Below are positions 7,252 through 64,000 of a stretch of 64,000 nt of DNA, piece by piece. The position numbers and the translations under genes are program-made. This DNA comes from an uncultured Weeksellaceae bacterium. Lineage in GTDB: Bacteria > Bacteroidota > Bacteroidia > Flavobacteriales_D > CAZDUI01. A model generated the notes under the pieces. The model was not told the origin of the DNA. It saw only the letters and a list, made by a program, of their open reading frames with translations, and did no database searches. Location: NCBI GenBank assembly GCA_964508605.1, contig CAZDUI010000006.1:44903-108902 (forward strand). Direction: 5' to 3'. The first letter of the stretch is position 1; each line of letters opens with the position of its first letter.

Positions 7252-7344
7252 ACCACAAATATACAAAAGGCTTTGGTTTTATAGGACTTCTTGAGATAGA
7301 GGTCACAATTTTAACACAAATCCTTACTCTCTCACCACCTCATT

Positions 7345-8127
7345 TTACTCTACCAACTTTCTTTTACGCCATGCGCTCGGTTTCCAACGGAAGGCCAAAG
7401 AATAAGTCATTTCGAAATACAACTCGGAAAAAAAAAGATTTTTAATTGAAACTGTGTTATTCGTTATCACATAATAATCTTTCACTACAGACATACCAAA
7501 TAAAAAGGATAATTCATGGAAAATAAGACTTTCCTTTTTAGGAAAATATATAAGTCTTATTCCTGTAAAAGCACGGTGCCAATCTCTCTTCAATACGCGT
7601 ATTGTCGGATTTGCTAAATATTTAATAGTTTCGGGAAAACCATAAACACGATACAGTCTTCTTTCGGCAGAATAACCCAGCGGAAGACCAATTGACCAAT
7701 TCCCATTTTTAAAAAGAGTCCGTGAACCATTTGTGCCCACGTACCATGAGACAGCCCTTAAAGTTTCTCCAAAAGGCAGTTCATATTCACTTATGTCAAC
7801 AGTATTTATAGATGTAAATGTAGATAATGGCCTGATAAAAGGTTCGCCGTAAGTTATTCCCAATTGCACTTCAGCCATCCATTTATTAAATCCCACGCCA
7901 GTATTTACGACGGATTGAGCAAAAAAAGGCCTCAACGGAGGAAAACTAACATAAAAAAACCTATTGGTATCGCCAGAATTAATATTAAAGCTCCGCCCGT
8001 TAACGGAATCACTAACAATGGTACTATGAAAAACCCATTTACATCTCAGGGGTTTCATTTCAATTGCATGACCCGTAAAAAGTATTTCAAAAAAAATAAT
8101 TGTAATTATAATTCTCCTTTTTGTCAT
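7345..8127 (-). CDS. hypothetical protein, possibly an outer-membrane beta-barrel
   Basis: 260-aa ORF in a very AT-rich segment (13/60 GC in the line starting at 7501). Hydrophobic N-terminus and alternating beta-like pattern. No family recognised. Confidence 0.5.
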   Translation of the reverse strand: MTKRRIIITIIFFEILFTGHAIEMKPLRCKWVFHSTIVSDSVNGRSFNINSGDTNRFFYVSFPPLRPFFAQSVVNTGVGFNKWMAEVQLGITYGEPFIRPLSTFTSINTVDISEYELPFGETLRAVSWYVGTNGSRTLFKNGNWSIGLPLGYSAERRLYRVYGFPETIKYLANPTIRVLKRDWHRAFTGIRLIYFPKKESLIFHELSFLFGMSVVKDYYVITNNTVSIKNLFFSELYFEMTYSLAFRWKPSAWRKRKLVE

Positions 8128-8167
8128 CGTAAAATCTGAAAATCAATCTATAATTTCATTTCTAGCA

Positions 8168-8635
8168 TTAAGGCACTCGGGTAAAAAATGAACCAAAACC
8201 ATTTACTGCACAATGGCTACAGTCGGGGTTAGCTACTGCAAGAAACGGAAACCCGTAAATGATGATGGTATCGTTGTCCATATTAAAATAATCTTTAATT
8301 ACCCACTTCAAATGTCGGTCAACAATAACGTGATACTGATAATGACTATTGTGAATTTCTATTTTATCAATCCTGAATTGCGCCCTTTCACTTAATTTTC
8401 CGTCAGAATAAAATTTTAATTTACCCGATTTTTCAAATTCCAATTCAATAACCTCATCGTTAATCTCACCCAATGGTGAAGAATAAATTTCTTCATTCAG
8501 ATACAAATCCATATAACTGGTTTTTCCAATTAAAAATTTCCACCGACCTACCAGTATATGCGCATCATCCCCGAATCGGTCTTTTTGGCAACCGTATAAA
8601 CAAAGACAACACAAAATAATCACAATATAACGCAT
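8168..8635 (-). CDS. small lipoprotein, unknown function
   Basis: 155-aa ORF with signal peptide and lipobox (CLCLYGC). It starts 1 nt after the upstream gene's stop. Confidence 0.55.
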   Translation of the reverse strand: MRYIVIILCCLCLYGCQKDRFGDDAHILVGRWKFLIGKTSYMDLYLNEEIYSSPLGEINDEVIELEFEKSGKLKFYSDGKLSERAQFRIDKIEIHNSHYQYHVIVDRHLKWVIKDYFNMDNDTIIIYGFPFLAVANPDCSHCAVNGFGSFFTRVP

Positions 8636-8636
8636 A

Positions 8637-11300
8637 TTACATTCTTATTATTTTAATTTCCGTAGACTCGTTTTTCGTTAGTACCTTAAATAAATAAACC
8701 CCTTTACTAAAGGAAGAAAAATCGAATTCATAATCAGTAGAAGTTGCAACACCATGCATAAGTATTCTCCCGTATATATCACTAAGAAACCACATATTCC
8801 CTAATAACTCCGGGTGAATAAGTAGTTTGGTGATGCCCATAGTGGGATTAGGATAGGCTGACACATTTGCGACTGGTTCAGGGGAAATGTAGATTTCTGA
8901 AATTTCGTTTTTAACAATGGTATTCGTTGCCGTTTCTTGTAAAGAAGAGTTCGCCTCTTGTATTTGATTTAGAGGCTGAATAAAAATTGGTTCATCCTTT
9001 TTTATTATTTTAAAAAGTGCAATTGGATGATATGTATAATCAAGGTCAGGGTATTCCAGTCTCAGTATGCCACCACTGGAAGTCTTATCAATTTCGTAAC
9101 CCAACCAATATCCTGTATAGGCATCATACCAATCTGTTCTAAATTTCTCCTTCGAAACCCCAATATTTATTTCGATACGATGGAAAGGTTTATCCTCAAC
9201 AACCTCAGTAATATGCAAATTATTATCTGAAGGAGGCACCAAAGAACAGGGTGTGCCAGGGATAGCCATAGAATACCAATTGTATGTATTATTGACCAAA
9301 ACACCTATTACGCGGGGATTACCAATTGTTTCTTTTAAAAAAGACACATAAGCCTTACCTTCACCTGTACCTTCTCTTGCAGAATAACCTGGCAGCCAAT
9401 TCTCCTGATTAAAATCAATTCCACCAATAAAATTAGCTAATTTTAAGAACCTGTCCGGTACTGGTGGAGTTACTTGAGTAGAATTCCAAACCAACCCTGT
9501 ACCCATTAAACCAGAAAAGGTACTCGTATAAAAATCAATAAGTGTTGTGGCTCCGTTATCGCATCCCGTCGCATTTCCAGGATATTCTATCCCCCCTCCA
9601 CCTATTTCACTATGAAACACTGGTTTATCACCTATTTCATCTGCATGACTCTTTAACTTTTCACCTCTACTTGTTTCATTGCTATAATGATTGTAACATG
9701 CCACATCTACATAACTTAGGTCAAAGGAATTGTCTGGAAACGCGTTACCGCCATCAACTATACCATCACCCGTACCATCTTTGCCTGTGTAATTAACTGC
9801 AAGCAATTGCTTCGTTCCAATACTCTTTAAGTATCCCAGCATTTCATAATTCCAATCCTTAACATACTGACGCAATGAAGCCGATGTTTCGTATGGTTTG
9901 TATTTCACAGGCGAACAATTAATATGATATGATTGTCCGATGTTGTTCATCTCACTAATAAGTTCAAATATCGCAATCTCAGTAGAATATCCATAACGGG
10001 CAATCATATAACGCAGCCGGTTTTTATAAAATGCCTTTGCTGCCGAGTTGCTAAGAAACTCTTCAGGATATGTTAAACCTAAATCTCTCTGATAACAATA
10101 CCCAGAATCTTTCGGGTTTGACGAACAATTGCCAGTAGTATAAACAGGTGAATTATGCGGACTCCAATCCCAATAAAAAAAATAATAAGTACTCAGTATT
10201 TCAAATGGATAATGAGCCATCATATTAAAATGAATTTTCAGATTCAAAGAATCTGCGCGTTCTAAAATCCGGTCAGTTTCCCAAGCACAATGCATCCTTT
10301 CTGAGTAATCATTTATTTTCTCAAATTCAATCTCCAAATTCCATGGAGCAATCATCATTCTAAAATAATTTATTCCTTTTGTTTTAAAGTGAGTCAATCT
10401 ATCCAAATATTCAACAAATTGTTGTGGATGAACTATTTTGCCAGTATACGGATCATCACCCAATAGTTTCTCTGGCCAGGGTAAATTAATTCCTATAGGA
10501 AAAAAAGTTTCATCATTAATTGTCAAATATCGCTTATTACTACCAACAGTTACATAAGGATCAGCCCCTGTATCCACCACTTTAAACATTACAAACGCAC
10601 TTTGGTATACAGTAGTGTGTCCAATAATATTTGCAAAAGCTCTTACACGCCATTCACCAACTTGAGGCGGCGCGTATCTAATACGAAAAGGACAGGAAGT
10701 GGTATCCTTTTGCCAATATTGCGATGCCGCAGAAGTATCCAATGGGTCATTAATGACTCTTATAAATTCATTATAATAAAAACCGTTTATTTGTTCATAC
10801 CATTGCCAGTTACCGGCAGCGTCGCGTTTTTCAAAAACTGCAAATACATCTACTTCAGAAGGGTTGAAAGGGTTCAACGTTGGGGTAATTCCGGTATGAT
10901 TCACAAAATTATTAATTTCCGCAATAATTCCGGCAGGCAAACTAAAACCCAATTCAAGTTTCTTATACCGGATGGCAACGCCAGGTGTAGTAGATGGCGC
11001 ATACCATTTTAAATGAATAGGATATTCCACAATATTCGCATGTACTTCACCACGCAAGTGTGTTTCAGGATAGATATGTACTTCCTGACCAGATCTAAAC
11101 CATGAATCGGTACCAGGTGCGGTAGTAGTTAAACCATACCCATGACCGATTGAGATTTTTGACTGATGCTCATAATCCCCTTCCAATTGTGCATCAGAAA
11201 GCCCTAGGCCGGGTATCTCGTAGGGCACCGGAGTCTGGCCAAATAATCGCATTATGCAAGTAACACCAAATAAACCAATAAACCAAAAAATCGTCTTCAT
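8637..11300 (-). CDS. putative glycoside hydrolase (DUF5060-like N-domain plus GH5-like TIM barrel) with T9SS C-terminal domain
   Basis: 887 aa with a signal peptide. LNPFNPSEVDVFAVFEKRDAAGNWQWYEQINGFYY resembles DUF5060. The central region has GH5-like acid/nucleophile contexts (FELISEMNN, VFHSEIGG). The C-terminus AYPNPTMGITKLLI...GVYLFKVLTKNE is a T9SS CTD. Confidence 0.65.
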   Translation of the reverse strand: MKTIFWFIGLFGVTCIMRLFGQTPVPYEIPGLGLSDAQLEGDYEHQSKISIGHGYGLTTTAPGTDSWFRSGQEVHIYPETHLRGEVHANIVEYPIHLKWYAPSTTPGVAIRYKKLELGFSLPAGIIAEINNFVNHTGITPTLNPFNPSEVDVFAVFEKRDAAGNWQWYEQINGFYYNEFIRVINDPLDTSAASQYWQKDTTSCPFRIRYAPPQVGEWRVRAFANIIGHTTVYQSAFVMFKVVDTGADPYVTVGSNKRYLTINDETFFPIGINLPWPEKLLGDDPYTGKIVHPQQFVEYLDRLTHFKTKGINYFRMMIAPWNLEIEFEKINDYSERMHCAWETDRILERADSLNLKIHFNMMAHYPFEILSTYYFFYWDWSPHNSPVYTTGNCSSNPKDSGYCYQRDLGLTYPEEFLSNSAAKAFYKNRLRYMIARYGYSTEIAIFELISEMNNIGQSYHINCSPVKYKPYETSASLRQYVKDWNYEMLGYLKSIGTKQLLAVNYTGKDGTGDGIVDGGNAFPDNSFDLSYVDVACYNHYSNETSRGEKLKSHADEIGDKPVFHSEIGGGGIEYPGNATGCDNGATTLIDFYTSTFSGLMGTGLVWNSTQVTPPVPDRFLKLANFIGGIDFNQENWLPGYSAREGTGEGKAYVSFLKETIGNPRVIGVLVNNTYNWYSMAIPGTPCSLVPPSDNNLHITEVVEDKPFHRIEINIGVSKEKFRTDWYDAYTGYWLGYEIDKTSSGGILRLEYPDLDYTYHPIALFKIIKKDEPIFIQPLNQIQEANSSLQETATNTIVKNEISEIYISPEPVANVSAYPNPTMGITKLLIHPELLGNMWFLSDIYGRILMHGVATSTDYEFDFSSFSKGVYLFKVLTKNESTEIKIIRM

Positions 11301-29038: not shown

Positions 29039-29419
29039 ATCAATACATTTAGCCTGTATATTGTATGTATTTCTGGTTCAGCCCATGCCAAAAACCAAAA
29101 AGCCGTGACAATAACAGCGAAAGGGCAAATTTATTTTAAATTCTTTAGCAGGAGATAAAAAATGGCCTGAATGGCAGGTCTACCCATTTAAGAATAGAAA
29201 GAAATAAAGATGAATAACACATAAATAGTTGGCTGAAACCATTTTTGTTTCTCAATATAAGTTTTGATAATCAGATTTTAATTTGAAAATGCAACTTGTA
29301 TAAAGAAATAAAGACTTCGTCTGCCGGCTGGGTATTCCTTTTGTCAACGGTCAAAAAGGAATCAAAAACCGCTTTTTTAAAGCGAACCTGCTCGTGTATT
29401 TGAAAATTAAACTTACCTT

Positions 29420-29605
29420 CAAGGGGATAAATAAAATTAACAGATAGCAATTTTTGAGATTTTTTCCAACAGATTCGACTCGTTTTTTGACAAATATAGC
29501 GGGCCATATTTGGATAAAAATGAGAGAAGGTGCGGAAAAAAACAAAAAGTGCATCTGAATGTGCTTTTACTGATAATTAGAAACTGATTTTATATATCCC
29601 CGCTG
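29420..29605 (+). repeat. rod-like palindromic intergenic element, copy A (candidate structured sRNA or MITE-like repeat)
   Basis: Closing stem 29423-29439/29585-29601. Middle helix 29458-29467/29534-29543. Apical hairpin 29483-29520. 77/100 ungapped identity between 29421-29520 and 63341-63440. The G-U pairs are only valid on the plus strand. Confidence 0.6.
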
Positions 29606-29968
29606 GTCTCATGTAAACTCAATTACGCCAATAGCGACAGATAATGCTCGTCTGTCGATGGCTGGATTTCAAACAGCACATTCGACGGGCGTTCGGGTTG
29701 CATTATTTTCTAAATACAACTCCCACGATTCGCTAGGTTAATCCTTTATTCTAATTACAATTAAATTAAAACCGGTTCATTATCAATTTACCATAGCCAT
29801 AAAATTTCTCCTTTCAATTATGGCAAATATATTTGTGCTCGTTCCAGCCTGAACGAAAGGAAGAACCATATATCAACTGAGGAGTTTGGCTGTGCAAGTA
29901 CACCATCAGGTTATCCGGATTCTTTATTAAGACGAAGGAAATAATACACGATACATGAAACTGTCAGC

Positions 29969-51925: not shown

Positions 51926-53710
51926 TTACCGGCGAACAAACTGTGACACCTTACCGTTATCGTCATTTCTAAGTAAATAAATCCCTGATGACAGATGTGC
52001 GATATTCAGATTACTTGATGATTTAACAGACATTAAAACCCTTCCATTCAAGTCTGTAACCGTATAATTTCCGGTAAATTCAACTTGAATTACATCAGAT
52101 GACGGATTAGGATATACCGCAAACCCTTTGGAGCTATCATTTTGTTCTGCACCCATAATTCCTGATACTGCAAAAACAGACACTGTTCCACTTACCTCAT
52201 TAGAGCTTAGTAGCAAAGGATTGCCTGTAGGACTTGTGGCAGCCGGGATGAACAATAAATCTTCAGGCCCCAGATCTCCGGCAGCCGCTGTAGTTTCTGG
52301 TTGTGTAAAAAATCGGTGATTGTGGTAGGTAACAAACACGGGATTGATTGGATCGCTGATATTATATACTACAAATCCCCCCATCCTCTCCAGCCCGATT
52401 ACTGCATATGTGTTTCCAGAGGCATCCTGCATAATTTCAACACATTCCGGCTCGGGGCCTTTGTTATCGCTGCGTGAGTCCGCAGAGTTATTGTCGTCGT
52501 TATTGGAATTAAAATACGATGTCCATGGCGTCTGAGAAGTAATGGTTTCAAAATCGTCTCCACTGTCGTACACTAAACTCATTGCAGTATTCCAAATGGA
52601 GAATGAACGTGTTCCAAAAACATAGATTTCGTCGTAGTCTCCGTCGTTTCCGGCATCGCCCATAGAAGTAGTAAAATTGAGACGCCCCAGTTCATTGTCG
52701 GTTTGCAGGGTAGCTGCATTTGGAAATGCTACGGCATCCAGGGTAACATTTTTAATTCTCTCTTCTTCGCCAAACGCCGAGTAATCTCTTGAATCGCCTT
52801 CATTGGCTGAAATGATATAACCATTGCCACCAATTGAAATATACACCATTCCATCAGGTTGATACATTCCATAAACACCGGCTGGTGTAACGGCTATATC
52901 CACTCCGTCCTTATCGCTTGCATCTATAGCATTGCCTGCAACACTGAAATCTTTATACCCAAGACCTTTCAGCTCTGTTAAGGTACCGGTTGTCAAATCT
53001 ATCTTTGCCATAGCATTGTTTTCCTGTAATACCACAAACACAGTTTGTGAATCGTCACTTACAGCAATATATTCGGGTTCAAGGTCCTGTTGTATTGAAG
53101 CTGCGCCGCCATTACCAAAAATCCTAATCAGGGGATCAATATTTCCGGCATTGATACTTAAAAAATCAACTGTAGTTACTACCGCAGCACTTACCCCGGC
53201 TGAAATATCAATAATACTCACAGTACCTTCGGGGTCTGAAACATAATCATCGCTGGGTTCACCTTCATTTGCTGTAAGTACTTTATTTCCGTCAGGGGTA
53301 AAAGTAACCATATCAGGCATGGCGCCAACGGTTACCTGACCCAGATACGCAAGCGTTGTGGCGTCAAAAAAGACAACAGAACCATTCGCCTGAGGATTCG
53401 CATTTTCAACAGCAACGGCAATTATTTGATTTTTCACAGCTACGCTGTTCAGTCCGGCGCCATAGGACGCCATACTAATACTTTGCTCCAATGAAATGGC
53501 TGACGGGTTTGAAAAATCAATAACATCTAAACTATTGGAACCTCCGTTCGTTGAAAATATACGTTGACTTACAGGGTCATAAGCAATAATTTCGGTTGCA
53601 CTCACCTCAAAGCCACCATCCCGGTATGTACTTAAATGCGTAAATGAAATTTGAGCAGAGCATGCTCCGGCGGTTAAAGAAAATATAGACAATAGTAACT
53701 TTTTTTTCAT
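51926..53710 (-). CDS. choice-of-anchor-I-like beta-propeller protein with T9SS C-terminal domain
   Basis: 594 aa with a signal peptide. The N-terminal SATEIIAYDPVSQRIFSTNGGSNSLDVIDFSNPS resembles the choice-of-anchor I family as I remember it. The C-terminal VYPNPSSDVIQVEF...GIYLLRNDDNG is a T9SS CTD. Confidence 0.65.
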   Translation of the reverse strand: MKKKLLLSIFSLTAGACSAQISFTHLSTYRDGGFEVSATEIIAYDPVSQRIFSTNGGSNSLDVIDFSNPSAISLEQSISMASYGAGLNSVAVKNQIIAVAVENANPQANGSVVFFDATTLAYLGQVTVGAMPDMVTFTPDGNKVLTANEGEPSDDYVSDPEGTVSIIDISAGVSAAVVTTVDFLSINAGNIDPLIRIFGNGGAASIQQDLEPEYIAVSDDSQTVFVVLQENNAMAKIDLTTGTLTELKGLGYKDFSVAGNAIDASDKDGVDIAVTPAGVYGMYQPDGMVYISIGGNGYIISANEGDSRDYSAFGEEERIKNVTLDAVAFPNAATLQTDNELGRLNFTTSMGDAGNDGDYDEIYVFGTRSFSIWNTAMSLVYDSGDDFETITSQTPWTSYFNSNNDDNNSADSRSDNKGPEPECVEIMQDASGNTYAVIGLERMGGFVVYNISDPINPVFVTYHNHRFFTQPETTAAAGDLGPEDLLFIPAATSPTGNPLLLSSNEVSGTVSVFAVSGIMGAEQNDSSKGFAVYPNPSSDVIQVEFTGNYTVTDLNGRVLMSVKSSSNLNIAHLSSGIYLLRNDDNGKVSQFVRR

Positions 53711-53729
53711 GATATTATGTGGTTATTAA

Positions 53730-55454
53730 TTACTTAGAAATAAATGAATGTGTGCTGTATTCATTGTTGGAGCTTACCCTGAGGAAATAAATACCCGATT
53801 GATGAGTAACCAGTGGGATTTGTGTAGTTCCGGCATTTACATGTTCATTAAAACTGAAAACAAGTCTTCCTGAGGCATCAAAACACTCCATTTGAATCTG
53901 GTTTTGGTTTTTAGAATGCACCCACAAGTTGGCACCCGCTTCAGTATTTGCCACCACTACAGAAAAATCACTTAAATCTTTTCTGTTTACAGCTACCGTT
54001 TTAACAGGAATATAATCTCCATTCATATTTGTGTGACCCAATCTGTAGAAAGAGATACCCTGCAACGGATTAGGGTCTATGCGCGTGTAATGATGCAGGG
54101 AAGAACCATTGATATCGGCCGACAGACTAAGGATGGATGTCCAGTTATTACCATCAGCACTTCTATCTACGGTATAATAGTCGATGTCGGATTCACTTGC
54201 CGTAACCCAGTCTAGTTTTACGACGCTCTCATCGGACACTGCGGTAAAATCAATCAGTTCAACGGGTAGTACGAATGTACCACAAGAAGTACACGGGTTT
54301 GAAAATATACGGTATACAACTATTTCATCTGCCCTGTCGGCCCTGCCTGAAACCCTGATGGTGCCGGGACCTGCCAAAGTATAGCTATCGTTTAAAGTAG
54401 CGTTAGAGCCGCCTGTTTTCACAACTTTTGGTCCGCCGGGGAAATCCACTTTCAAATTATCACACGTTGCGCAGCTGCCGTCGGCACCCGAAGCGCTGCA
54501 ACCTAAAGAAGACCAAATCCGCATGGTTGCATATACAGTATAGCTGCAACCCGCCGGAACGACAATATCTGTACTTACCGACTGATACCCTGCTGAACAG
54601 TTACCTGCAACCGCCGGACTACAGTTTGGCCCGCCCAGTGTGGTAAGGTTGCATCCTGAAATACAGCCGCAGCCGGCGCCTGTAACACCCAAAGATCCGG
54701 TAACGGGTGTCCAGGGAGCATCAGTTACAGTAAAAGCACAGGCGGTTTCATTCCACGATTGTCCTGCAGCATTTGTCCAGTTTGCATTGTTACCAATGGC
54801 AGTGCGCAAGGCAGCTTTGGTAGAGCTAACAGTTCCGGCGCAGTTGTAATGCCATTGGTCCTGACTGGAGCTCACTTGTATGGCACTGGTTCCTAGAACA
54901 AGTCCTGTAGGCAACGCGGTGTTGTTCTTGCTGGAACAATCACCCCCCGAAGCAAATGTTCCGTTATGACGCAAAGCGTAAATAAAAACCGGTGCTGCGC
55001 GGGTTCCTTGTAATACAATTACATTGTCGCCACCACTGTTCAAACCAAAATTAGTTCCCCAGGGAGAGCCCAAAGATGTTTGAGTAACTGCCCCGGAAGA
55101 AACCAGAATGGGACCTCCTGCGGCATCCAAATCGATATAAATTACACTTCCTGCCAATACCTGCGAAACCACTGTAATTTCTACCGCAAATTCTTCATCG
55201 TCGCAATACCAGACACTCGTATTTCTCCAGTTATTATCTGTAACCATAAACTTTGTATTGCACTCCAGATCAACCAATGTAAGAAGCTTTACCGCATCAT
55301 TTCCAGCCTGTGTACCCGCGCTGGTTTTAAAACCAATAACCACTACATCGCCAGCAGTGAGTACTGTTTGCGAATACAGCGGACTTTTTACCAAAATACC
55401 GGACAGTAAAAGCAAGAGATACAAAACAATAACAGAAATACCTGTTTTTAACAT
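53730..55454 (-). CDS. Cys-rich secreted protein with T9SS-type C-terminal domain, unknown function
   Basis: 574 aa with a signal peptide. Central Cys-rich region (GAGCGCISGCNL...CSASGADGSCATCDNL). LPVELIDFTA...KLDWVTASE Ig-like module. C-terminal GIYFLRVSSNNE sorting-domain-like end. Confidence 0.6.
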   Translation of the reverse strand: MLKTGISVIVLYLLLLLSGILVKSPLYSQTVLTAGDVVVIGFKTSAGTQAGNDAVKLLTLVDLECNTKFMVTDNNWRNTSVWYCDDEEFAVEITVVSQVLAGSVIYIDLDAAGGPILVSSGAVTQTSLGSPWGTNFGLNSGGDNVIVLQGTRAAPVFIYALRHNGTFASGGDCSSKNNTALPTGLVLGTSAIQVSSSQDQWHYNCAGTVSSTKAALRTAIGNNANWTNAAGQSWNETACAFTVTDAPWTPVTGSLGVTGAGCGCISGCNLTTLGGPNCSPAVAGNCSAGYQSVSTDIVVPAGCSYTVYATMRIWSSLGCSASGADGSCATCDNLKVDFPGGPKVVKTGGSNATLNDSYTLAGPGTIRVSGRADRADEIVVYRIFSNPCTSCGTFVLPVELIDFTAVSDESVVKLDWVTASESDIDYYTVDRSADGNNWTSILSLSADINGSSLHHYTRIDPNPLQGISFYRLGHTNMNGDYIPVKTVAVNRKDLSDFSVVVANTEAGANLWVHSKNQNQIQMECFDASGRLVFSFNEHVNAGTTQIPLVTHQSGIYFLRVSSNNEYSTHSFISK

Positions 55455-55585
55455 GAGCCGAAGGTAGTGGTGTACCGCCTCCGTATTTCATTAAATTACA
55501 ACAAATAACAGAATGATAAAATGTGATTTACCTGGAAATTACAATTAATTAACCTTCCTTATCATGACGATTCAAAATGCCGTGG

Positions 55586-56623
55586 TTAATCCCTTTGAAT
55601 ACTCAATTGCCGAAGGATATAAATCCATACCAGAAGCAACACAAATGCACCTACCTGATGCAATACGCCCAGCCATAACGGTACACCGGTAATAAGTGTC
55701 AATACTCCCAAAAGAAACTGAAGGGACAGGACCAATATCAACACATTTCCGGTTTTTATAAGATCTTTGGGCGCCTTCATTTTACGCAACCTGTAAACAA
55801 TGTAAATGCCTGCAAAAAATACCAGCCAGGCCATATTGCGGTGCACAAACTGAACGCCTGCCAATCCTTCAAGTAACTCCATTCCACCCTTATCGGAACC
55901 GGTAACCGCAGGATGAATCCAGTAATCACCCATCAATGGCCAGGTATTTAAAACAAAGCCTGCATCAAGTCCGGCTACAAAAGCTCCATATACAATTTGA
56001 ATTAACAAGACAAATAATGCTGCCTTTGTGAATAGTTGTAACCCGGGTGCGCTGAATTTGGTTTCTGCATTTTTTAATAAAGAAGTTGCCACCCAGAAAA
56101 TATATGCGCAGGTAACAAACGCCATGAGCAGGTGGGCTGCCAACCGATAGTGGCTTACATCCGGATTATCTACCAGTCCGCTGCTTACCATCCACCACCC
56201 TACAAAACCCTGTAATCCACCCATTGACAGAATCAGCAGGCATCGCAACAGCAATTTACCCCGAATCAACCCTTTATAAACAAACCAGATAAATGGAATA
56301 AAAAATACCAGCCCCAAAATACGTCCTATCAACCGGTGCAAATATTCCCAGAAAAATATTCCCTTAAATTCCTGAAGGGTCATGTTGTAATTTACCTTTT
56401 GAAACTCGGGTGTTTGTTGATATTTTGCAAAGGTCTCTTCCCATTGCGCTTCGCTAAGCGGCGGAACAGCCCCCATTACCGGATCCCATTCCACAATACT
56501 TAGTCCACTGTGCGTTAGCCGGGTAATTCCACCTACCACTACCATTACAAAAATAAGGAGGCAACCGGTAAGCAACCAGCGAAATACCGGGCGCAAACGG
56601 GAATCATGCAGGGTAATTGGCAT
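55586..56623 (-). CDS. ctaA: heme A synthase (COX15/CtaA family)
   Basis: 345 aa and multi-pass. Conserved His contexts (THSGLSIVEW, EYLHRLIG, LAAHLL, FVHRNMAW). Confidence 0.85.
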   Translation of the reverse strand: MPITLHDSRLRPVFRWLLTGCLLIFVMVVVGGITRLTHSGLSIVEWDPVMGAVPPLSEAQWEETFAKYQQTPEFQKVNYNMTLQEFKGIFFWEYLHRLIGRILGLVFFIPFIWFVYKGLIRGKLLLRCLLILSMGGLQGFVGWWMVSSGLVDNPDVSHYRLAAHLLMAFVTCAYIFWVATSLLKNAETKFSAPGLQLFTKAALFVLLIQIVYGAFVAGLDAGFVLNTWPLMGDYWIHPAVTGSDKGGMELLEGLAGVQFVHRNMAWLVFFAGIYIVYRLRKMKAPKDLIKTGNVLILVLSLQFLLGVLTLITGVPLWLGVLHQVGAFVLLLVWIYILRQLSIQRD

Positions 56624-56669
56624 TCATATAAGGTTTAAGCAAAGAATGAACAACACAAACCGAAAAAAG

Positions 56670-57548
56670 TTAAGCCGAAACTGTTTCCAGTTCGCGATTC
56701 ACTTTCTTGAACAATCCCTGCAATACTGTCCCGGGACCACACTCGGTAACTGAGGTAACCCCGTCGGTTATCATATTTTGCATAATTTGTGTCCAGCGCA
56801 CCGGAGCGGTAAGCTGGGCAATCAGGTTATTGCGTATTTCTGCAGGATTTGTAACCGGCATTGCATTCACATTTTGATATACCGGACAACGGGGTGTATT
56901 GAAGGTTAATGCATTTATAGCCCTTTCAAGTTCTACCCGAGCCGGTTCCATTAGCGGACTGTGAAATGCACCACCTACCTGAAGCAGCAGTGCACGCTTT
57001 GCGCCAGCCTCTTTTAATTTTTCGCAGGCTGTATTTACTGCATTTATCTCTCCGGAAATTACCAACTGTCCGGGAGAATTGTAATTTGCCGGCACTACTA
57101 CTCCTTCTACCTCAGCACATATCCTTTCCACCTCAGCATCTTCCATTCCCAAAATGGCCGCCATAGTACTTGGCACCGCCTCACAAGCCTTTTGCATGGC
57201 ATTGGCACGCTGCTGAACCAATTTTAAACCGTCTTCAAACGATAAGGCCCCTGCCGAAACCAAAGCAGAAAATTCGCCGAGTGAATGACCAGCCACCATA
57301 TCCGGTACAAACGAATCGCCCAAAGTAACTGCCTTAATTACAGAATGAATAAAAATTGCAGGCTGGGTAACATTGGTTTGTTTCAGTGCGTCGTCGGTAC
57401 CTGTAAACATAACATCGGTAATTCGAAATCCCAAAATGTGATTTGCATTTTCAAACATCTCCCGTGCTCCTGAATACTCCTGATATAAATCGTGACCCAT
57501 ACCCGAAAACTGTGCTCCCTGACCCGGAAAAACATATGCTTTTTTCAT
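56670..57548 (-). CDS. fabD: malonyl CoA-acyl carrier protein transacylase
   Basis: 292 aa. FPGQGAQ, active-site GHSLGEFSA, and GAFHSPLM. Confidence 0.93.
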   Translation of the reverse strand: MKKAYVFPGQGAQFSGMGHDLYQEYSGAREMFENANHILGFRITDVMFTGTDDALKQTNVTQPAIFIHSVIKAVTLGDSFVPDMVAGHSLGEFSALVSAGALSFEDGLKLVQQRANAMQKACEAVPSTMAAILGMEDAEVERICAEVEGVVVPANYNSPGQLVISGEINAVNTACEKLKEAGAKRALLLQVGGAFHSPLMEPARVELERAINALTFNTPRCPVYQNVNAMPVTNPAEIRNNLIAQLTAPVRWTQIMQNMITDGVTSVTECGPGTVLQGLFKKVNRELETVSA

Positions 57549-57631
57549 CTATATAATTTTGGACGAAGGTATGAAAATACATGAAAAACGAACTAATCAA
57601 ACCTTTAGATTTCCTTTGGGTGATGGTTTAT

Positions 57632-58534
57632 TTATTTCTGAAACAGCTTATTCAGCGCATCATCCATTCGCTCATACCGGAAAGTAAATCCTGCTGCTTT
57701 TATTTTACTGTTGTCTGCACGATTTCCTTTAAGAACCAACTCTGAAAGTTTACCAAACATGAGTTTAAGAATAAAAGCGGGCACGTTAGGTAGCCATGCC
57801 TTTCTATTTAACGCCTTGGCAAAATACTTTGTAAATTCACGATTGGTTACATGCTGAGAGGCAACAGCATTATATACTCCTTTCACCTTTGGGTTCTCCA
57901 ATGCAAAAATCATCATTTCAGCAATATCGTCAATGTGAATCCAGGGCATCCATTGTTTGCCTGTACCCAGGGGGGCACCCAGTCCCATGCGAAACACGGG
58001 AATCATTTTATGAAGCGCACCTCCGCCAGCAGCCAGTACCACGCCAATTCGCAGTTTTACCACCCGGGCATTGCCCGTCCATTCATCGGCAGCCTGTTCC
58101 CATAAACGAACCACATTAGCAGTAAAATCTTCTCCATTACCATCATCTTCAGTAAATATTTTCGCGGAAGGATTAATACCATAGAAATTAATACCTGATG
58201 CTGAAATAAACGTTTCAGGAAAAATACCTTTCCGCTTGCATTGTTCCAGCAAAAAAGCAGATGTAAAAGTACGCGACCGGATAATATATTCCTTTCTGTC
58301 ACGTGTCCATCTTTCGTCGGCAATGCCTGCACCGGCAAGGTGAATTACGGTTTTCAGTCCTTCCAATGCAGCGTCATCAAATACTCCTGTTTCCGGGTCC
58401 CATTCAAAAGCTTTGTAGGTTCCGGCTTTTCCTGACCTGGACAACACAGCAAAATCTTTACCTAGCGCAGAGAGTTTTCTGCAGAGAGTTTTACCCAACA
58501 GTCCGGTACCACCTGTAATCAGAATTTCGGCCAT
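57632..58534 (-). CDS. TIGR01777/YfcH-like NAD-dependent epimerase family protein (with DUF1731-like C-terminus)
   Basis: Start set at MAEILITGGTGLLG (ATG at 58534). Size and C-terminal region are typical of the family. Confidence 0.82.
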   Translation of the reverse strand: MAEILITGGTGLLGKTLCRKLSALGKDFAVLSRSGKAGTYKAFEWDPETGVFDDAALEGLKTVIHLAGAGIADERWTRDRKEYIIRSRTFTSAFLLEQCKRKGIFPETFISASGINFYGINPSAKIFTEDDGNGEDFTANVVRLWEQAADEWTGNARVVKLRIGVVLAAGGGALHKMIPVFRMGLGAPLGTGKQWMPWIHIDDIAEMMIFALENPKVKGVYNAVASQHVTNREFTKYFAKALNRKAWLPNVPAFILKLMFGKLSELVLKGNRADNSKIKAAGFTFRYERMDDALNKLFQK

Positions 58535-58567
58535 ACACTTCAAACGCATAGGGCAGGTAAAGGTTTA

Positions 58568-60049
58568 CTATGTTTTCAAAAAGCGTTTAACATCCTCCAG
58601 GCTCTCAATTTTATCGTCGCTTACGGTAAAAAACAAATCTACGGTACTGCCTCTCTTCAGGGATTCAAAAGGAATTTTGTTGTATTCTTCAGCCGAAATT
58701 CTCGCCAGTTTACCTCCGTAAAGCGTAGTAATAATCATACTTCCGGGCATGTTGCGCAGTAATAAACTATCACTAAAGAAAACATCAGGGTTCAGACGCA
58801 CCAGGCTATTATTACCCGGCATTATCATATAAAACACATTGGTACGCAGATCTTCGGTTTTATGTAATGGCGTACTAAATTGTAGTTGCGTATGTACCAT
58901 TACCGGCTGCATCTGATCTTGCTTAATAAACTTATCCCAGTTAAAAATGCCAAACCCACCCAACTCAAAAGTGCGGTACACCACCTCCTTTTCGGCTATC
59001 ATCCGTTCCAGCTCCTTCACTTCCGCCATAACAGTTTCATATTCATTCTGCCAGTATGCGGCATCCTTTGCAAACAATTGCTGCACGGTCATTACAGCCT
59101 CCATATTCCCTTTAAACTTGCGCCCGTCGTAGTATTCAAGTACAAACCGGTATTTGTTCTTTCCCAGCGCGTACACTTGTGCAGAACGTGTATCGCCTGA
59201 GGGCGGCATCTTTGACGGATTGTCCATTTTCCATACGATTGCATCGGCTGGATATTTTCTGCCTTTAAATGCAATTTCCGCATATATACTTACACTTAAA
59301 GGAGTTACATTGTAATCTCGCAACTTATCTTTGATTTTGGGCGACTTTTCCATGATGGCAATAGCATGATAATTATTGTTTGCCAGCATATCCAACAGGC
59401 TGTGGTAATTCAGTACTGCATAGCCATCAGTAAATGGTATGGCGTGCGCCGGTATTTTTTCATTCATTTTACGCACCATCTCCACCCGTTCTGTATTTAT
59501 TTCAGGATCTCCCTCACCCTGATACGCCCAGTTCTTATCCTCTTCATTCAAATAAAAAAACCTGTAGGTACTGTCGCTTTGCATAGAACCCATGCGAACC
59601 GTAACATTCATTCCCGGTTTCACATTCAGGGTATTTCCCTTGGTATCGTGCGCACGAATTTCAAACATACCCGCGGTTTCAAAAGTCTCATCTTTTCCTT
59701 CCACTTTCATGGTCATTGGTATACCCGATACAAAAATATCGGCAGCGGTATGAAATTCCCTGTATGAAAGCACGGCTTCACCGTTGAAGGGTTTACCCTG
59801 GGCATCAGTGAGTGCGCCGGCAGGAATGGAAATAGTAGTTCCTTTTCCGTTTGCCGGACGAAGTACCTGTGATTTACCGGCATTAAAAGCAATTTTTTCA
59901 ATCGGAATATCTACTCCCTGAATGGGAGGCGCGATGAATGGTTTTACCTGCTTCGCATTTGTGTCGGCAAAAGAAGAGTCCATTTTTCCTCCGGTTTTAC
60001 AGGCCTGCATTATCAATGCACATCCCGCAACTGCAAATACTGCTTTCAT
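58568..60049 (-). CDS. lipoprotein, unknown function
   Basis: 493 aa with signal peptide and lipobox (ALIMQAC). No family recognised. Confidence 0.6.
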   Translation of the reverse strand: MKAVFAVAGCALIMQACKTGGKMDSSFADTNAKQVKPFIAPPIQGVDIPIEKIAFNAGKSQVLRPANGKGTTISIPAGALTDAQGKPFNGEAVLSYREFHTAADIFVSGIPMTMKVEGKDETFETAGMFEIRAHDTKGNTLNVKPGMNVTVRMGSMQSDSTYRFFYLNEEDKNWAYQGEGDPEINTERVEMVRKMNEKIPAHAIPFTDGYAVLNYHSLLDMLANNNYHAIAIMEKSPKIKDKLRDYNVTPLSVSIYAEIAFKGRKYPADAIVWKMDNPSKMPPSGDTRSAQVYALGKNKYRFVLEYYDGRKFKGNMEAVMTVQQLFAKDAAYWQNEYETVMAEVKELERMIAEKEVVYRTFELGGFGIFNWDKFIKQDQMQPVMVHTQLQFSTPLHKTEDLRTNVFYMIMPGNNSLVRLNPDVFFSDSLLLRNMPGSMIITTLYGGKLARISAEEYNKIPFESLKRGSTVDLFFTVSDDKIESLEDVKRFLKT

Positions 60050-60060
60050 GGTTGTTGGCT

Positions 60061-60732
60061 TTACTGGTTATTATGTTGTAAGTAGTGGTGAAGCGCTAAA
60101 TAAGAGTAACTGAATTGTTCGCCCTGAAATCGTTTTCCGTATGGAAATGCTTTTACCCTCTGCCATTGTTCTATCCTGTTGCGGGTATTCATAAAACCCA
60201 GATTATAGGCAGCAGCAGCAAATTGTACCCAATTCTCTGCAGACCCGGAGGCATTATCGGGGAAACGATGCGCCAGAACTTTCAGGAAAGCGCAAACATA
60301 ACGATACTGCCAGGCAAAGCTTTGTAGTCGTACCAGCCTTTCCCGGCGCACCGTTTCCCCGTGCTGAGTGATATAAGGAGTTAATAATACTGTGTCCGTA
60401 TTCAGTACCTCAATGTCTTCAGCAAATGAAGGTTTCATTTGCGCTGTGCCAATAGAAAAATCGGCATATCGGGTTCCAAATTGAACGTACAACAGCTCCA
60501 AAGCTTCCGTTTCTATCAAATTACTGATGCTGTTGTATCGTAAAAACTCAGGAAACACAACCGAAAGCGCCACTTCTGAATCGCATTGGCACGATACCGG
60601 AAGATTTTGAATTTCATTTCGTGCCGAAACAGTCATCATTACAGCCTTGCGGTAATCATCGCCAAAATACTTTGCCTCTGTGGAAGGACGAAAAGCGTAT
60701 ACTGTTGATAATATCATCAATAACAACTGCAT
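60061..60732 (-). CDS. hypothetical protein, possibly lysozyme-like (SLT-type lytic transglycosylase fold)
   Basis: 223 aa. VVFPEF (candidate catalytic Glu), FSIGTAQMKP and AAAYNLG loosely match the SLT E-S / GLMQ / AYNxG motif order. Confidence 0.45.
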   Translation of the reverse strand: MQLLLMILSTVYAFRPSTEAKYFGDDYRKAVMMTVSARNEIQNLPVSCQCDSEVALSVVFPEFLRYNSISNLIETEALELLYVQFGTRYADFSIGTAQMKPSFAEDIEVLNTDTVLLTPYITQHGETVRRERLVRLQSFAWQYRYVCAFLKVLAHRFPDNASGSAENWVQFAAAAYNLGFMNTRNRIEQWQRVKAFPYGKRFQGEQFSYSYLALHHYLQHNNQ

Positions 60733-60901
60733 GTAAATGGATTAAAAGTTTAGAGCAACCAAATACTCTAAGCCAGGGTGGTTACAAATTTTATCTTTTT
60801 ATATGAAAGAAGTACATCTAGAACAACACGAAGACCTACGTAAATCTGGCAAATGATAAAAGTATATTTTTCAACATCCATTAGAATTCCCCAAATCGAA
60901 A

Positions 60902-60933
60902 TTTGCCTTATAACAACAAAAGTTATAGATTTG
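60902..60933 (+). promoter_or_regulatory. candidate Bacteroidota sigma-A promoter of hmgA-hppD (TTTG-N20-TAGATTTG)
   Basis: TTTG at 60902-60905 and a perfect TAnnTTTG (TAGATTTG) at 60926-60933, 17 nt upstream of the hmgA ATG. Confidence 0.5.
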
Positions 60934-60950
60934 ACGCAAATTTTCAGCAC

Positions 60951-62108
60951 ATGCCTTTTTATCACAAACTGGGAAACTTTCCTAAAAAACGCCATACTCA
61001 ATACCGCAAGCCCAACGGGGAATTATATCAGGAACAGTTATTTGGAACAGTGGGGTTCGACGGAATGTCAAGCCTATTGTATCATTTGCACCCCCCCACT
61101 ATGGTTAAGGATATTCTTGAAAGCAAAGACCTTACTCCTGAAATTGCGGTTGACAAGAACATGAAAAGTGTAAACCTGAATGGTTTTAAGATAACACCCA
61201 GACAAGATTATCTGGAATCCAGAACACCCGTACTGGTAAACAGCGATGCCCACATTGTTCTGGCAGCGCCAACAGGTAAAACCACCGAATATTTCTATAA
61301 AAATGCCGATGCCGATGAGGTGGTTTTTATACACGAAGGCAGTGGTACACTGGAGACCTTGCTGGGAGACATCACCTTCTCTTATGGCGATTATCTGGTC
61401 ATTCCGCGGGGCATCATTCATAGGTTCCGTTTTGATGGCGAAGTAAACAGACTTTTTATAGTTGAATCCTATCATCCGGTGTACACCCCAAAAAGGTACA
61501 GAAACTGGTTTGGACAATTGCTGGAACATTCTCCGTTCTGCGAGCGCGACATACGTCCCCCGAATCATTTACAGACGTATGATGCCTTGGGAGATTTTCT
61601 GGTGAAAGTAAAAAAGGAAAGCATGTTACATCAATATGTATATGCTTCGCACCCATTTGACGTAATAGGCTGGGACGGTTACAATTATCCGTATGCTTTT
61701 TCCATTCATGATTTTGAGCCTATTACCGGCAGGGTTCATCTTCCTCCGCCCATTCATCAGACGTTTGAAACTGCAGCCTTTGTAATTTGCTCGTTCTGTC
61801 CGCGGCTGTACGATTATCACCCTATGGCCATTCCTGCACCTTATAACCACAGCAATATAGACAGCGATGAAGTGTTGTATTATGTTGACGGTGACTTTAT
61901 GAGTAGAAATCACGTGGAAAAGGGAATGATAAGCCTACATCCAGCAGGAATTCCTCACGGTCCTCATCCCGGTGCCTACGAGCGAAGCATTGGTCAGAAA
62001 GAAACTTTGGAACTCGCTGTAATGGTAGATACTTTTAAACCATTAAAAATTACAAAACAAGCATTGGAAATTGAGAATCAGGACTATTATAAATCCTGGT
62101 TGAAATAG
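60951..62108 (+). CDS. hmgA: homogentisate 1,2-dioxygenase
   Basis: Start set at MPFYHKLGNFPKKRHTQYR (ATG at 60951). Cupin core and SLHPAGIPHGPHPG are typical of the bacterial short HmgA type. Confidence 0.88.
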   Translation: MPFYHKLGNFPKKRHTQYRKPNGELYQEQLFGTVGFDGMSSLLYHLHPPTMVKDILESKDLTPEIAVDKNMKSVNLNGFKITPRQDYLESRTPVLVNSDAHIVLAAPTGKTTEYFYKNADADEVVFIHEGSGTLETLLGDITFSYGDYLVIPRGIIHRFRFDGEVNRLFIVESYHPVYTPKRYRNWFGQLLEHSPFCERDIRPPNHLQTYDALGDFLVKVKKESMLHQYVYASHPFDVIGWDGYNYPYAFSIHDFEPITGRVHLPPPIHQTFETAAFVICSFCPRLYDYHPMAIPAPYNHSNIDSDEVLYYVDGDFMSRNHVEKGMISLHPAGIPHGPHPGAYERSIGQKETLELAVMVDTFKPLKITKQALEIENQDYYKSWLK

Positions 62109-62135
62109 AAATAAGAATCATCAAAATATACAGTT

Positions 62136-63296
62136 ATGGCCAAAGAAGTAAAAAACGTTGAGTACGGGCTGGAAAAGATTTTTGAAGATGCCCGAGATTT
62201 TCTGCCGTTAATGGGAACCGATTATGTAGAATTCTATGTTGGTAACGCCAAGCAAAGTGCACATTACTATAAAACAGCCTTTGGATTTCAAAGTTTGGCC
62301 TATGCCGGACTGGAAACAGGAATAAAAGACCGTGCTTCTTACGTTTTAAAGCAGGATAAAATAAGACTGGTGCTTACCACTGCACTCAACAGTAATTCTC
62401 CCATTGGCGAACATGTACAAAAGCATGGCGATGGAGTGAAGATTATTGCATTGTGGGTTGATGATGCCCGAAAATCGTGGGAAGAAACCACAAAAAGAGG
62501 TGCAAAATCTTTTATGGAACCCACGGTTGAAAAAGACGAACACGGAGAAGTATTGCGTGCCGGAATTCACACCTACGGCGAGACCATACACATGTTTGTT
62601 GAACGTAAAAATTACAACGGTACTTTTTTGCCCGGTTACCGGGAGTGGAAATCGGATTACAACCCCTCACCCGTGGGATTAAAGTTTGTAGACCACATGG
62701 TGGGAAATGTAGGCTGGGGCGAAATGAACACCTGGGTAAAGTGGTATGAAGATGTTATGGGATTTGTGAATTTTTTGTCGTTTGACGACAAAACCATACA
62801 TACGGAATACTCTGCATTGATGAGTAAAGTAATGAGCAATGGCAACGGGAGAATTAAATTTCCTATTAACGAGCCGGCCGAAGGCAAGAAAAAATCGCAG
62901 ATTGAAGAATACCTTGATTTTTATGAAGGCTCTGGCTGTCAGCATATTGCCGTTGCTACCGACAACATCATTGAAACCGTAAAACAGCTCAGAGCCCGCG
63001 GAGTAGAATTTCTTTCGGCGCCGCCCCATGCCTATTACGAAGAAATACCCAACCGCCTGGGTGTACACATGAGCATGATGAAAGAAGATATGGGTGAACT
63101 GGAGCGATTAGGAATACTTATTGACGCCGACGAAGAAGGATATTTGTTGCAAATTTTTACCAAGCCTGTAGAAGACCGACCTACGTTGTTCTATGAAATT
63201 ATCCAAAGAATGGGCGCCCGTGGTTTCGGTGCAGGAAATTTTAAAGCATTGTTTGAATCTATAGAAAGAGAGCAGGAAAAAAGAGGCACCTTATAA
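62136..63296 (+). CDS. hppD: 4-hydroxyphenylpyruvate dioxygenase
   Basis: 386 aa. Two VOC modules, GSGCQHIAVATDNI, and the C-terminal GFGAGNFKALFESIEREQEKRG. Confidence 0.93.
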   Translation: MAKEVKNVEYGLEKIFEDARDFLPLMGTDYVEFYVGNAKQSAHYYKTAFGFQSLAYAGLETGIKDRASYVLKQDKIRLVLTTALNSNSPIGEHVQKHGDGVKIIALWVDDARKSWEETTKRGAKSFMEPTVEKDEHGEVLRAGIHTYGETIHMFVERKNYNGTFLPGYREWKSDYNPSPVGLKFVDHMVGNVGWGEMNTWVKWYEDVMGFVNFLSFDDKTIHTEYSALMSKVMSNGNGRIKFPINEPAEGKKKSQIEEYLDFYEGSGCQHIAVATDNIIETVKQLRARGVEFLSAPPHAYYEEIPNRLGVHMSMMKEDMGELERLGILIDADEEGYLLQIFTKPVEDRPTLFYEIIQRMGARGFGAGNFKALFESIEREQEKRGTL

Positions 63297-63340
63297 AATT
63301 GTTTACGATTTTAATCCTTCAATAGAAATAACACTTTATA

Positions 63341-63631
63341 AAGGGGACTTTTAAAAATAGCAAATAGCAATTTTTAAATTTGTTTCCAGCAGATTCAATT
63401 CGTTTTTTGACTGATATTTCGGAATATATCAGGATAAAAAAACCTAGAAAATACATTAGAAAATCTATTGCGGGTTCAACCTGCTTTAAAATAAATAGTT
63501 TCACATTATTTTATTGCACTTTAAACCTTCATCATGAAGTCCTAACACATAATCCGTTTACTGCGTAAAGTAAAAAAATTGCATCTGAATACGTTGTAAA
63601 AGAAAATTAATGTTTATTTTTTCAATTCCTT
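63341..63631 (+). repeat. rod-like palindromic intergenic element, copy B (diverged, with ~110-nt extra segment in the 3' arm)
   Basis: The core 63341-63440 aligns ungapped with 29421-29520 (77/100). Apical hairpin CTGATAT ttcggaat ATATCAG at 63411-63432. TGCATCTGAAT recurs at 63580-63590. Candidate closing stem 63341-63360/63614-63631. Confidence 0.55.
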
Positions 63632-63784
63632 ACAGGTTTTAAATTCAGCAAACATGCTTCAACATTGTATAAGACTAATGCAGGCTGAAAGGTTAAAATT
63701 GAGTATTTTGGCATCTGTTAATGTTTGGTGCAGGCTTACAGCGAATCAATCCGGAATACCGCACTACGCTTATATTTGACTGTT

Positions 63785-63919
63785 ATGGAATTGAAAAACA
63801 TAATTTTGAAAACAAAACTAAAACACATCATCCCCATCCTGCTCGCAGCAGCAATGGCGGCCTGCACGGGTAACCGAAAAGCAGACGAAAAACCTGCTCC
63901 CTTATTCCCGCAACCCTAA
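63785..63919 (+). CDS. 44-aa lipoprotein-signal ORF, possibly the 5' end of a larger gene interrupted by an in-frame TAA
   Basis: MELKNIILKTKLKHIIPILLAAAMAACTG is a signal peptide with lipobox. TAA lies at 63917-63919, and the same frame then stays open to the window edge (SVEVNTKGGYSLNTVTGDTLKPIILES). Confidence 0.35.
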   Translation: MELKNIILKTKLKHIIPILLAAAMAACTGNRKADEKPAPLFPQP

Positions 63920-64000
63920 AGCGTGGAAGTAAACACAAAAGGCGGCTATTCATTAAATACAGTAACGGGTGACACCCTAAAACCCATTATTTTAGAAAGC

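Follow-up and report, generated by a model that had tools for sequence, protein, structure and literature searches.

Look-alike hairpins in an uncultured Flavobacteriales genome: probably a mobile inverted-repeat element and not a conserved structured RNA gene

Are two look-alike hairpins that lie far apart in the same genome copies of a conserved, structured RNA gene, or are they copies of a repeat that moves as DNA? The question is raised by two loci, copy A and copy B, in a 64,000-nucleotide stretch of DNA (the window) from an uncultured bacterium. A first-pass annotation aligned positions 29421-29520 with 63341-63440 without gaps, counted 77 identities in 100, and pointed to an apical stem that is CAAATAT/ATATTTG in copy A and CTGATAT/ATATCAG in copy B. 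Both observations are reproduced here: the similarity is significant (blastn E 8e-17), and the stems, each closed by an 8-nt loop, differ by two adjacent and complementary double changes. The annotation took this as selection on the structure of an RNA transcribed from the plus strand. Our analysis suggests that the look-alike hairpins are probably not a conserved structured RNA gene; A and B are an ordinary kind of genomic repeat, a mobile inverted-repeat element. Together with a third member, copy C, they are most readily read as a small family of MITE-like, non-coding, quasi-palindromic mobile DNA repeats, a reading to which we give a probability of roughly three in four.

Anatomy of the three copies

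Within the 64-kb window only copies A and B were found. The sequence AGATTCRAYTCGTTTTTTGA occurs exactly twice (29471-29490 and 63391-63410), while shuffled sequences are expected to hold 0.05 occurrences at up to three mismatches, and a second, weaker match joins the 3′ parts of the two copies (AAAAAGTGCATCTGAAT at 29544 and AAAAATTGCATCTGAAT at 63574). A close relative provides the third family member, copy C, as an insertion of 188 bp (L039:6251-6438). The elements are thus 188 bp (A), 188 bp (C), and approximately 299 bp (B) long and are located in intergenic or 3′-UTR DNA (Table 1).

Each element has terminal inverted repeats of about 17 to 22 bp that start with GGGGA(C/T), a conserved 5′ block (CAGATTC..TC.TTTTTTGAC), a 7-bp apical hairpin, and a conserved 3′ block (AAAAAGTGCATYTGAAT). 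The ends of copy C, (TATA)GGGGACTTCTAAAAACAG, constitute a 22-bp inverted repeat with one mismatch; given as TATAGGGGACTTCTAAAAACAG ... CTGTTTTTAGAAGTGCCCTATA, the second end is the reverse complement of the first with one mismatch in 22. The terminal helix of copy A has each of its 16 counted pairs, with one looped-out base in each arm, and that of copy B has 12 of the 16. The closing stem of copy B, in which GGGG faces TTCC, has the composition reported earlier, i.e., two G-T and two G-C pairs. The 5′ block had been called almost invariant, but it varies elsewhere: copy C has TCA for TCG, and L167, a strain with 99.8% identity to the window across the region of copy A, has a T>A change at 29480.

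Table 1. Positions of the elements and their parts in the window, with the site in the window that corresponds to copy C
Feature	Position	Strand	Remarks
Copy A, whole element, quasi-palindromic rod	29418-29605	+	188 bp; replaced by 6 nt in L163
Copy A, left terminal inverted repeat GGGGATAAATAAAATTA	29423-29439	+	pairs with 29585-29601; helix 1, columns 6-22 with 281-297
Copy A, right terminal inverted repeat ...TGATTTTATATATCCCC	29585-29601	+	partner of 29423-29439
Copy A, conserved 5′ block CAGATTCGACTCGTTTTTTGAC	29470-29491	+	common to A, B, and C
Copy A, apical hairpin CAAATAT-agcgggcc-ATATTTG	29491-29512	+	direct reading; helix 6; arms 29491-29497 and 29506-29512, 8-nt loop
Copy A, conserved 3′ block AAAAAGTGCATCTGAAT	29544-29560	+	common to A, B, and C
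Empty target site for copy C	58568-58571		L039 has the 188-bp element; overlap of 4 bp, CTAT (ATAG in gene orientation)
Copy B, whole element, about 299 bp	63338-63636	+	nhmmer A/B/C profile matches 63339-63636; right end degenerate, boundary approximate
Copy B, conserved 5′ block CAGATTCAATTCGTTTTTTGAC	63390-63411	+	common to A, B, and C
Copy B, apical hairpin CTGATAT-ttcggaat-ATATCAG	63411-63432	+	double compensatory change relative to A, columns 75/94 and 76/93; arms 63411-63417 and 63426-63432, 8-nt loop
Copy B-specific internal segment, 75 nt	63441-63515	+	gapped in A and C; contains GCGGG-ttcaa-CCTGC (63470-63484)
Internal module of B and C, missing in A	63516-63570	+	columns about 186-236
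Copy B, conserved 3′ block AAAAATTGCATCTGAAT	63574-63590	+	common to A, B, and C

The subfamilies differ by the presence or absence of internal modules. In the three-copy alignment, a 29-nt segment on the 5′ side is common to A and B and missing in C, a segment of about 50 nt on the 3′ side (63516-63570 in B) is common to B and C and missing in A, and 75 nt (63441-63515) are unique to B. The earlier estimate of about 110 extra nucleotides in the 3′ arm of copy B is therefore right as to length, as 299 versus 188 nt gives 111, but roughly 50 of these nucleotides also occur in copy C, so that 63516-63570 is a module of the family and not an insert specific to B. The additional hairpin that had been noted in this arm of copy B, GCGGG-ttcaa-CCTGC, is present; the terminator scan did not call it. 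The patchwork of modules has the look of deletion derivatives of a longer ancestor and is, as judged from the alignment, typical of deletion-derived MITE families.

Presence and absence among close strains

The units are discrete, have inverted repeats as their boundaries, and are gained or lost whole between close strains with flanks that are 87 to 98% identical. The three loci are unlinked, and precise empty alleles were found at two of them (A and C). At the copy A locus, strain L163, which is 92-93% identical to the window on both sides, has CTTACT (6 nt) in place of window positions 29418-29605, whereas L167, the strain mentioned above, carries copy A. At the copy C locus, the alignment with L039 is collinear on both sides of the element: positions 937-6250 of L039 align with 53257-58571 of the window (97.6%) and positions 6439-11177 with 58568-63312 (87%). 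In gene orientation, ATAG occurs once at the empty site in the window and twice at the filled site in L039. These data argue for insertion of discrete units, although the empty sites could in principle represent precise deletions and not ancestral states.

Several features of these two loci deserve mention in their own right. The empty allele of L163 (reverse complement, 3855-3875) reads AA-CTTAC-C-CTTAC-TG, a 5-nt direct repeat with a one-base gap, which could be an excision footprint consisting of a duplicated target and a residual base; the filled allele in the window has no CTTAC on the right. Another strain, L166, is without 675 bp (29172-29846) that include copy A. This stretch is flanked by the 7-bp direct repeat GCCTGAA (29165-29171 and 29847-29853), one copy of which is retained in L166, and its absence is probably a microhomology deletion in that strain. 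The 487 bp that surround copy A within the 675 bp are only 84% identical to L163; this spacer was considered as a second mobile element and rejected, being single-copy and having no inverted ends. At the copy C locus, the site of the element (58568-58571) is exactly where the identity between the window and L039 changes from 97.6% to 87%, which suggests, on the alignment, a recombination breakpoint at or beside it.

Copy B begins 42 nt past the stop codon of hppD, in sense orientation. Four Logan assemblies with flanks that are 98% identical have the element in identical form, and the sequence of copy B is unchanged in L184 and L186. Copy B is absent downstream of hppD in L039-L042 and in L182/L183; relatives without it have an HppD that is 98% (L039/L040) or 90% identical to that of the window. 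The homology of L039-L042 to the window ends 16 nt past the hppD stop codon, after which other genes follow. What follows hppD is hypervariable among close strains (L039:1-695, L039:11515-15740, and L042:3570-4409), with AAA_14/DUF4143 and CHAT-TPR genes in one strain, an ISL3 transposase in another, and copy B plus a sensor-like gene in the window. An rve-type transposase is found in L039 where the synteny with the window stops. The open reading frame downstream of copy B (63725-63919) has a lipoprotein-like signal and a sensor-like N-terminus and ends at a TAA codon. The T of this codon (63917) is an A in L184, in which the called gene continues until the contig ends. In the window strain, the frame appears to be cut short by a nonsense mutation or by an error in the sequence.

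The comparison with L184 bears on the possibility that the elements are genes for structured small RNAs or RNA modules acting in cis, the copies being paralogs selected for the rod-like fold of the plus strand. Copy B is without substitutions between the window and L184, while 8 differences occur in roughly 150 nt of the adjoining spacer, which favors this possibility. However, the differences are patchy on a larger scale: 10 occur in a 50-nt patch of hppD (63056-63106), none in the following 547 nt (63107-63653), and 10 in 63654-63940. The substitution-free tract takes in 190 nt of hppD coding sequence in addition to all of copy B. This pattern looks like a mosaic recombination tract; it does not resemble the effect of purifying selection acting on copy B. 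Moreover, the comparison of L167 with the window gives 2 substitutions in 1301 nt of the region that holds copy A, and the only one within copy A, the T>A change in the conserved block, breaks a predicted T-A pair. Exact-unit presence and absence in nearly identical strains argues against the RNA gene reading as well.

Paired arms and the question of strand

The structural argument was evaluated by projecting the minimum-free-energy structure of copy A onto the alignment of A, B, and C. With this structure, 85% of the cells are paired compared with 42-55% when the partners are slid by one to three columns. In 6 of the 63 pairs both partners have changed; columns 11/292, 12/291, 14/289, and 20/283 belong to the terminal stem, and columns 75/94 and 76/93 to the apical stem. 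The observed values were reached in only 2 of 500 shuffles. These numbers come from three sequences and a structure derived from one of them, and B and C have the same apical state, so the apical double change may represent a single event. Collectively, the six double changes and the shuffles indicate that the complementarity of the arms is maintained beyond chance. The first-pass annotation was in this respect correct that pairing is kept despite sequence change; the step from there to a structured plus-strand RNA is where it loses support.

In this context, the fold of copy A is far beyond that of shuffled sequences (z about -5.5 for either strand, with -54.4 kcal/mol for the plus and -50.0 for the minus strand), and the asymmetric conserved blocks adjoin internal loops; together with the double changes, both features count in favor of an RNA gene. 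Nevertheless, copy A is a long imperfect inverted repeat, for which a good fold on either strand is automatic. Copy A folds slightly better as the plus strand, while copy C folds clearly better on the opposite strand (-69.4 versus -62.9 kcal/mol; z -6.4 for one strand and -8.9 for the other), A and C forming rods on both strands, and the longer copy B folds only marginally better than its shuffles (z about -2). A strand-specific RNA signal is accordingly not what the folds give.

Wobble pairs provide a second measure of strand, since G-T juxtapositions can pair on the plus strand only and A-C juxtapositions would be G-U pairs on the minus strand only. On the structure of copy A, the ratio of G-T to A-C is 4:5 in copy B and 3:1 in copy C, i.e., there is no strand preference. 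It had been argued that the closing stem of copy B pairs on the plus strand only; this is true for the two G-T pairs discussed above, but copy B also has five A-C juxtapositions. Likewise, an A-C mismatch in the apical stem of copy C on the plus-equivalent strand is a G-U pair on the other strand. The orientation relative to neighboring genes is mixed, with A antisense and B and C sense. Thus, no evidence points to one transcribed strand.

The whole window gave no match in Rfam 15 (including 6S, 6S-Flavo, and Bacteroidetes motifs) at the gathering threshold, and relaxing the search to E values up to 10 around A and B returned chance-level hits only (22 bits or less). A scan for sigma-70-like promoters and intrinsic-terminator-like sites found none inside A or B. 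A Bacteroidetes-type -7 box (TAnnTTTG) was considered as a promoter and dismissed, as copy A has it on the minus strand only and copy B lacks a conserved counterpart. Considering discrete insertions, inverted-repeat ends, unbiased wobble pairs, a copy that folds better on the opposite strand, mixed orientation, and the absence of promoter, terminator, and Rfam signals, the inference of a plus-strand RNA does not stand, and we regard the elements as quite improbable RNA genes or modules.

Could the elements instead encode a small protein? Minus-strand open reading frames of 61-67 amino acids span A (29351-29554) and B (63319-63504) and have the motif VKKR[VI]ES.G in common, there is a plus-strand frame open in all three copies, and an automatic gene caller placed a 67-amino-acid gene across copy A in L167 (L167:4385-4588). 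However, the minus-strand frame is interrupted by a TGA stop codon in copy C, no frame with a start codon is open in all three copies, and the substitutions in the hairpin are radical at the protein level while complementary at the nucleotide level. When all open frames of the three copies were joined into one composite query, no homolog was found among 5.8 billion proteins (E up to 10). The gene call in L167 is almost certainly spurious, and the small-protein reading is effectively refuted.

The sites of the three copies raise the possibility that a repeat spreading as DNA has been co-opted, such that its rod, in a 3′ UTR or an intercistronic spacer, alters the stability, processing, or termination of the mRNA, with some selection on the hairpin. 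All three copies are positioned for co-transcription. Copy B follows hppD. Copy C lies within a pair of genes on the same strand (L039), and its boundary coincides with the stop codon of the upstream gene, which it overlaps. Copy A, which is antisense to both flanking genes, lies between the stop codon of a PAP2-like gene and a terminator-like hairpin, TCGCTTTAAAAAAGCGG followed by TTTTTG (window 29385-29369, minus strand), just past copy A in the direction in which this gene is transcribed; the hairpin beyond it places copy A, antisense, inside the probable 3′ UTR of the PAP2-like gene. Correia and ERIC elements are reported to have such RNA-level effects in the transcripts that carry them, and the complementarity of the apical stem is kept despite its distance from the ends. 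Against such a role, copy A is opposite to B and C relative to the carrying transcript, and presence or absence in close strains argues against any copy being essential. The elements could well be transcribed and may in that case have an added role at the RNA level; nonetheless, we consider co-option unlikely as the account of the family.

A probable family of mobile repeats and its relation to known systems

The term MITE (miniature inverted-repeat transposable element) refers to elements of 50-800 bp with terminal inverted repeats of at least 10-15 bp (10.1101/2024.01.18.576219). All three copies fall within the size range (approximately 50-800 bp, no coding capacity), and the inverted repeats have 21 of 22 bp in C, 16 of 16 counted pairs in A, and 12 of 16 in B, the end of which is degenerate. 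The copies are dispersed with filled and empty sites, at a low copy number of three independent loci. Target site duplications are often missing from prokaryotic MITEs and are thus dispensable (10.1101/2024.01.18.576219). The duplication that may flank a MITE is 2-10 bp long; in the present family, the ATAG overlap of copy C is inseparable from its own terminal inverted repeat, copy A has no duplication, and the right end of copy B is degenerate. A search for these ends with up to four mismatches in the window and in L039-L042 gave element copies only, with no transposase or autonomous element with matching ends, and no ends like those of the elements were found beside the rve gene (L039) or the ISL3 gene (L042). 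The first-pass annotation had itself named a possibility that would tell against an RNA, namely, that the two copies are recent duplicates of a mobile repeat with arms that are simply inverted repeats. The mobile repeat is largely what presence and absence at collinear sites point to; recent duplicates, however, they are not, because A and B are only 77% identical (blastn). From the alignments, A, B, and C are instead seen as diverged subfamily members of one mobile repeat.

How would a mobile DNA repeat acquire compensatory changes? A transposase supplied in trans would recognize both identical ends and move the element, and the arms would stay complementary since both ends need the same binding site. 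Covariation in the terminal stem follows from this requirement for the same recognition sequence at both ends. The apical double change is far from the ends and is not explained by shared transposase binding, which calls for a constraint on the hairpin or templated correction. In this scenario, the long DNA hairpin would, alternatively or in addition, correct itself through template switching, or it would be required for mobility. Hairpin-templated correction is a known mutational route in quasi-palindromes. Maintenance of the arms, and not selection on a plus-strand RNA, would then yield the "compensatory" differences between subfamilies, and the paired ends of a MITE or hairpin-templated repair would give such changes as readily as RNA selection. 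An element inside the mRNA of a neighboring gene would inevitably form an RNA rod, with possible side-effects on the mRNA that are not the reason for its sequence.

It can also be envisaged that the hairpin core (5′ block, apical stem, and 3′ block) is itself under selection, either as a 3′-UTR RNA module that is carried by transposition and acts on mRNA fate or as the guide or recognition RNA or DNA of a new mobilization system in Flavobacteriales. Either role would explain why complementarity was repaired by double substitution far from the ends. We consider this rather improbable.

Within the sequence searched, the family of mobile repeats appears to be confined to one uncultured Flavobacteriales lineage and to have a low copy number. 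The neighboring HppD and TPR proteins assign the window to this lineage, which resembles Crocinitomicaceae, with Crocinitomicaceae, Cryomorphaceae, Fluviicola, and Wandonia as the named matches. The lineage is sparsely sampled, as a single relative of the TPR protein at 97% identity is followed by one at 61%, and more distant relatives (TPR 61%, HppD 90%) have no copy. A scan of 596 Gb of genomes with CAGATTCNNNTCGTTTTTTGA returned 38 matches, none of which is homologous beyond the pattern. In metagenome contigs, a strict pattern had no match and a loose pattern at least 120, and those listed were all chance matches according to nhmmer; patterns for the 5′ and 3′ blocks hit eight loci in viral contigs (IMG/VR), none of them homologous. 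A covariance model of the core (R1) and an nhmmer profile, run on 255 kb including the DNA of relatives, recovered the known copies only.

These findings have consequences for annotation. Rods of this kind mimic structured small RNAs and are even called as genes for 60-70 amino acids, and false predictions of RNAs and proteins in this lineage are avoided once the rods are recognized as mobile repeats. In a DNA palindrome, compensatory changes in the hairpin are by themselves no demonstration of selection at the RNA level. Should many more copies and a parent transposase be found, the family could provide a marker for strain typing and a small example of how bacterial MITEs maintain the complementarity of their arms.

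Among known systems, 6S and 6S-Flavo RNA resemble the elements in being rods of about 190 nt with internal loops. In contrast to 6S RNA, the A/B/C copies are mobile and polymorphic, have a rod that is symmetric on both strands and no evident promoter or terminator, and are not matched by the covariance models.

Another comparison is with derivatives of single-strand transposons, i.e., palindrome-associated IS200/IS605 (Y1/HUH) elements or RAYT-mobilized, REP-like sequences that are recognized as a DNA hairpin and move without target duplication. REP/BIME sequences, which are RAYT-associated, are described as 20-40-bp palindromes with a GTAG or CGTC tag at the 5′ side (PMC3733652). Copy A has no target duplication, TTAC motifs are found near two of the insertion sites, and maintenance of the hairpin through compensatory changes is expected if a DNA hairpin is the feature recognized. 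However, at 188-299 bp the elements are far above the size of REPs, and their ends begin with GGGGA and carry neither tag. In addition, the elements carry inverted repeats of 17-22 bp right up to their ends, which IS200/IS605 derivatives are without. Such derivatives have subterminal hairpins and insert on the 3′ side of a fixed tetra- or pentanucleotide; here the flanking tetranucleotides differ among the three copies (left flanks ...CCTTCA, ...TTTATA, and ...AAAGTA). Descent from a single-strand transposon is on balance very unlikely.

Correia elements in Neisseria and ERIC/IRU elements in enterobacteria are imperfect intergenic palindromes of 100-300 bp that are co-transcribed with genes and have length variants with internal inserts. 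The present elements are alike in being imperfect palindromes, in their intergenic location, and in having such length variants, while they differ in belonging to another phylum and in having far fewer copies. The hallmarks of Correia elements are a TA duplication, an IHF site, and processing by RNase III. The end of copy C, TATAGGGGACTTCTAAAAACAG, seems loosely to resemble the Correia terminal inverted repeat, TATAG.GGATTAACAAAAA.CAG.

Finally, the elements were compared by their features with bacterial MITEs in general, among them MITEs of Bacteroidota such as those of Porphyromonas gingivalis (PMC4596501) and Cardinium (PMC9769881) and clusters in Flavobacteriales (10.1101/2024.01.18.576219). 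The A/B/C family differs from bacterial MITEs in that no parent insertion sequence was found and in having three loci only. It shares with them small size, AT-richness, the lack of coding sequence, terminal inverted repeats, intergenic location, insertion polymorphism among strains, length variants due to insertions and deletions, and a long hairpin.
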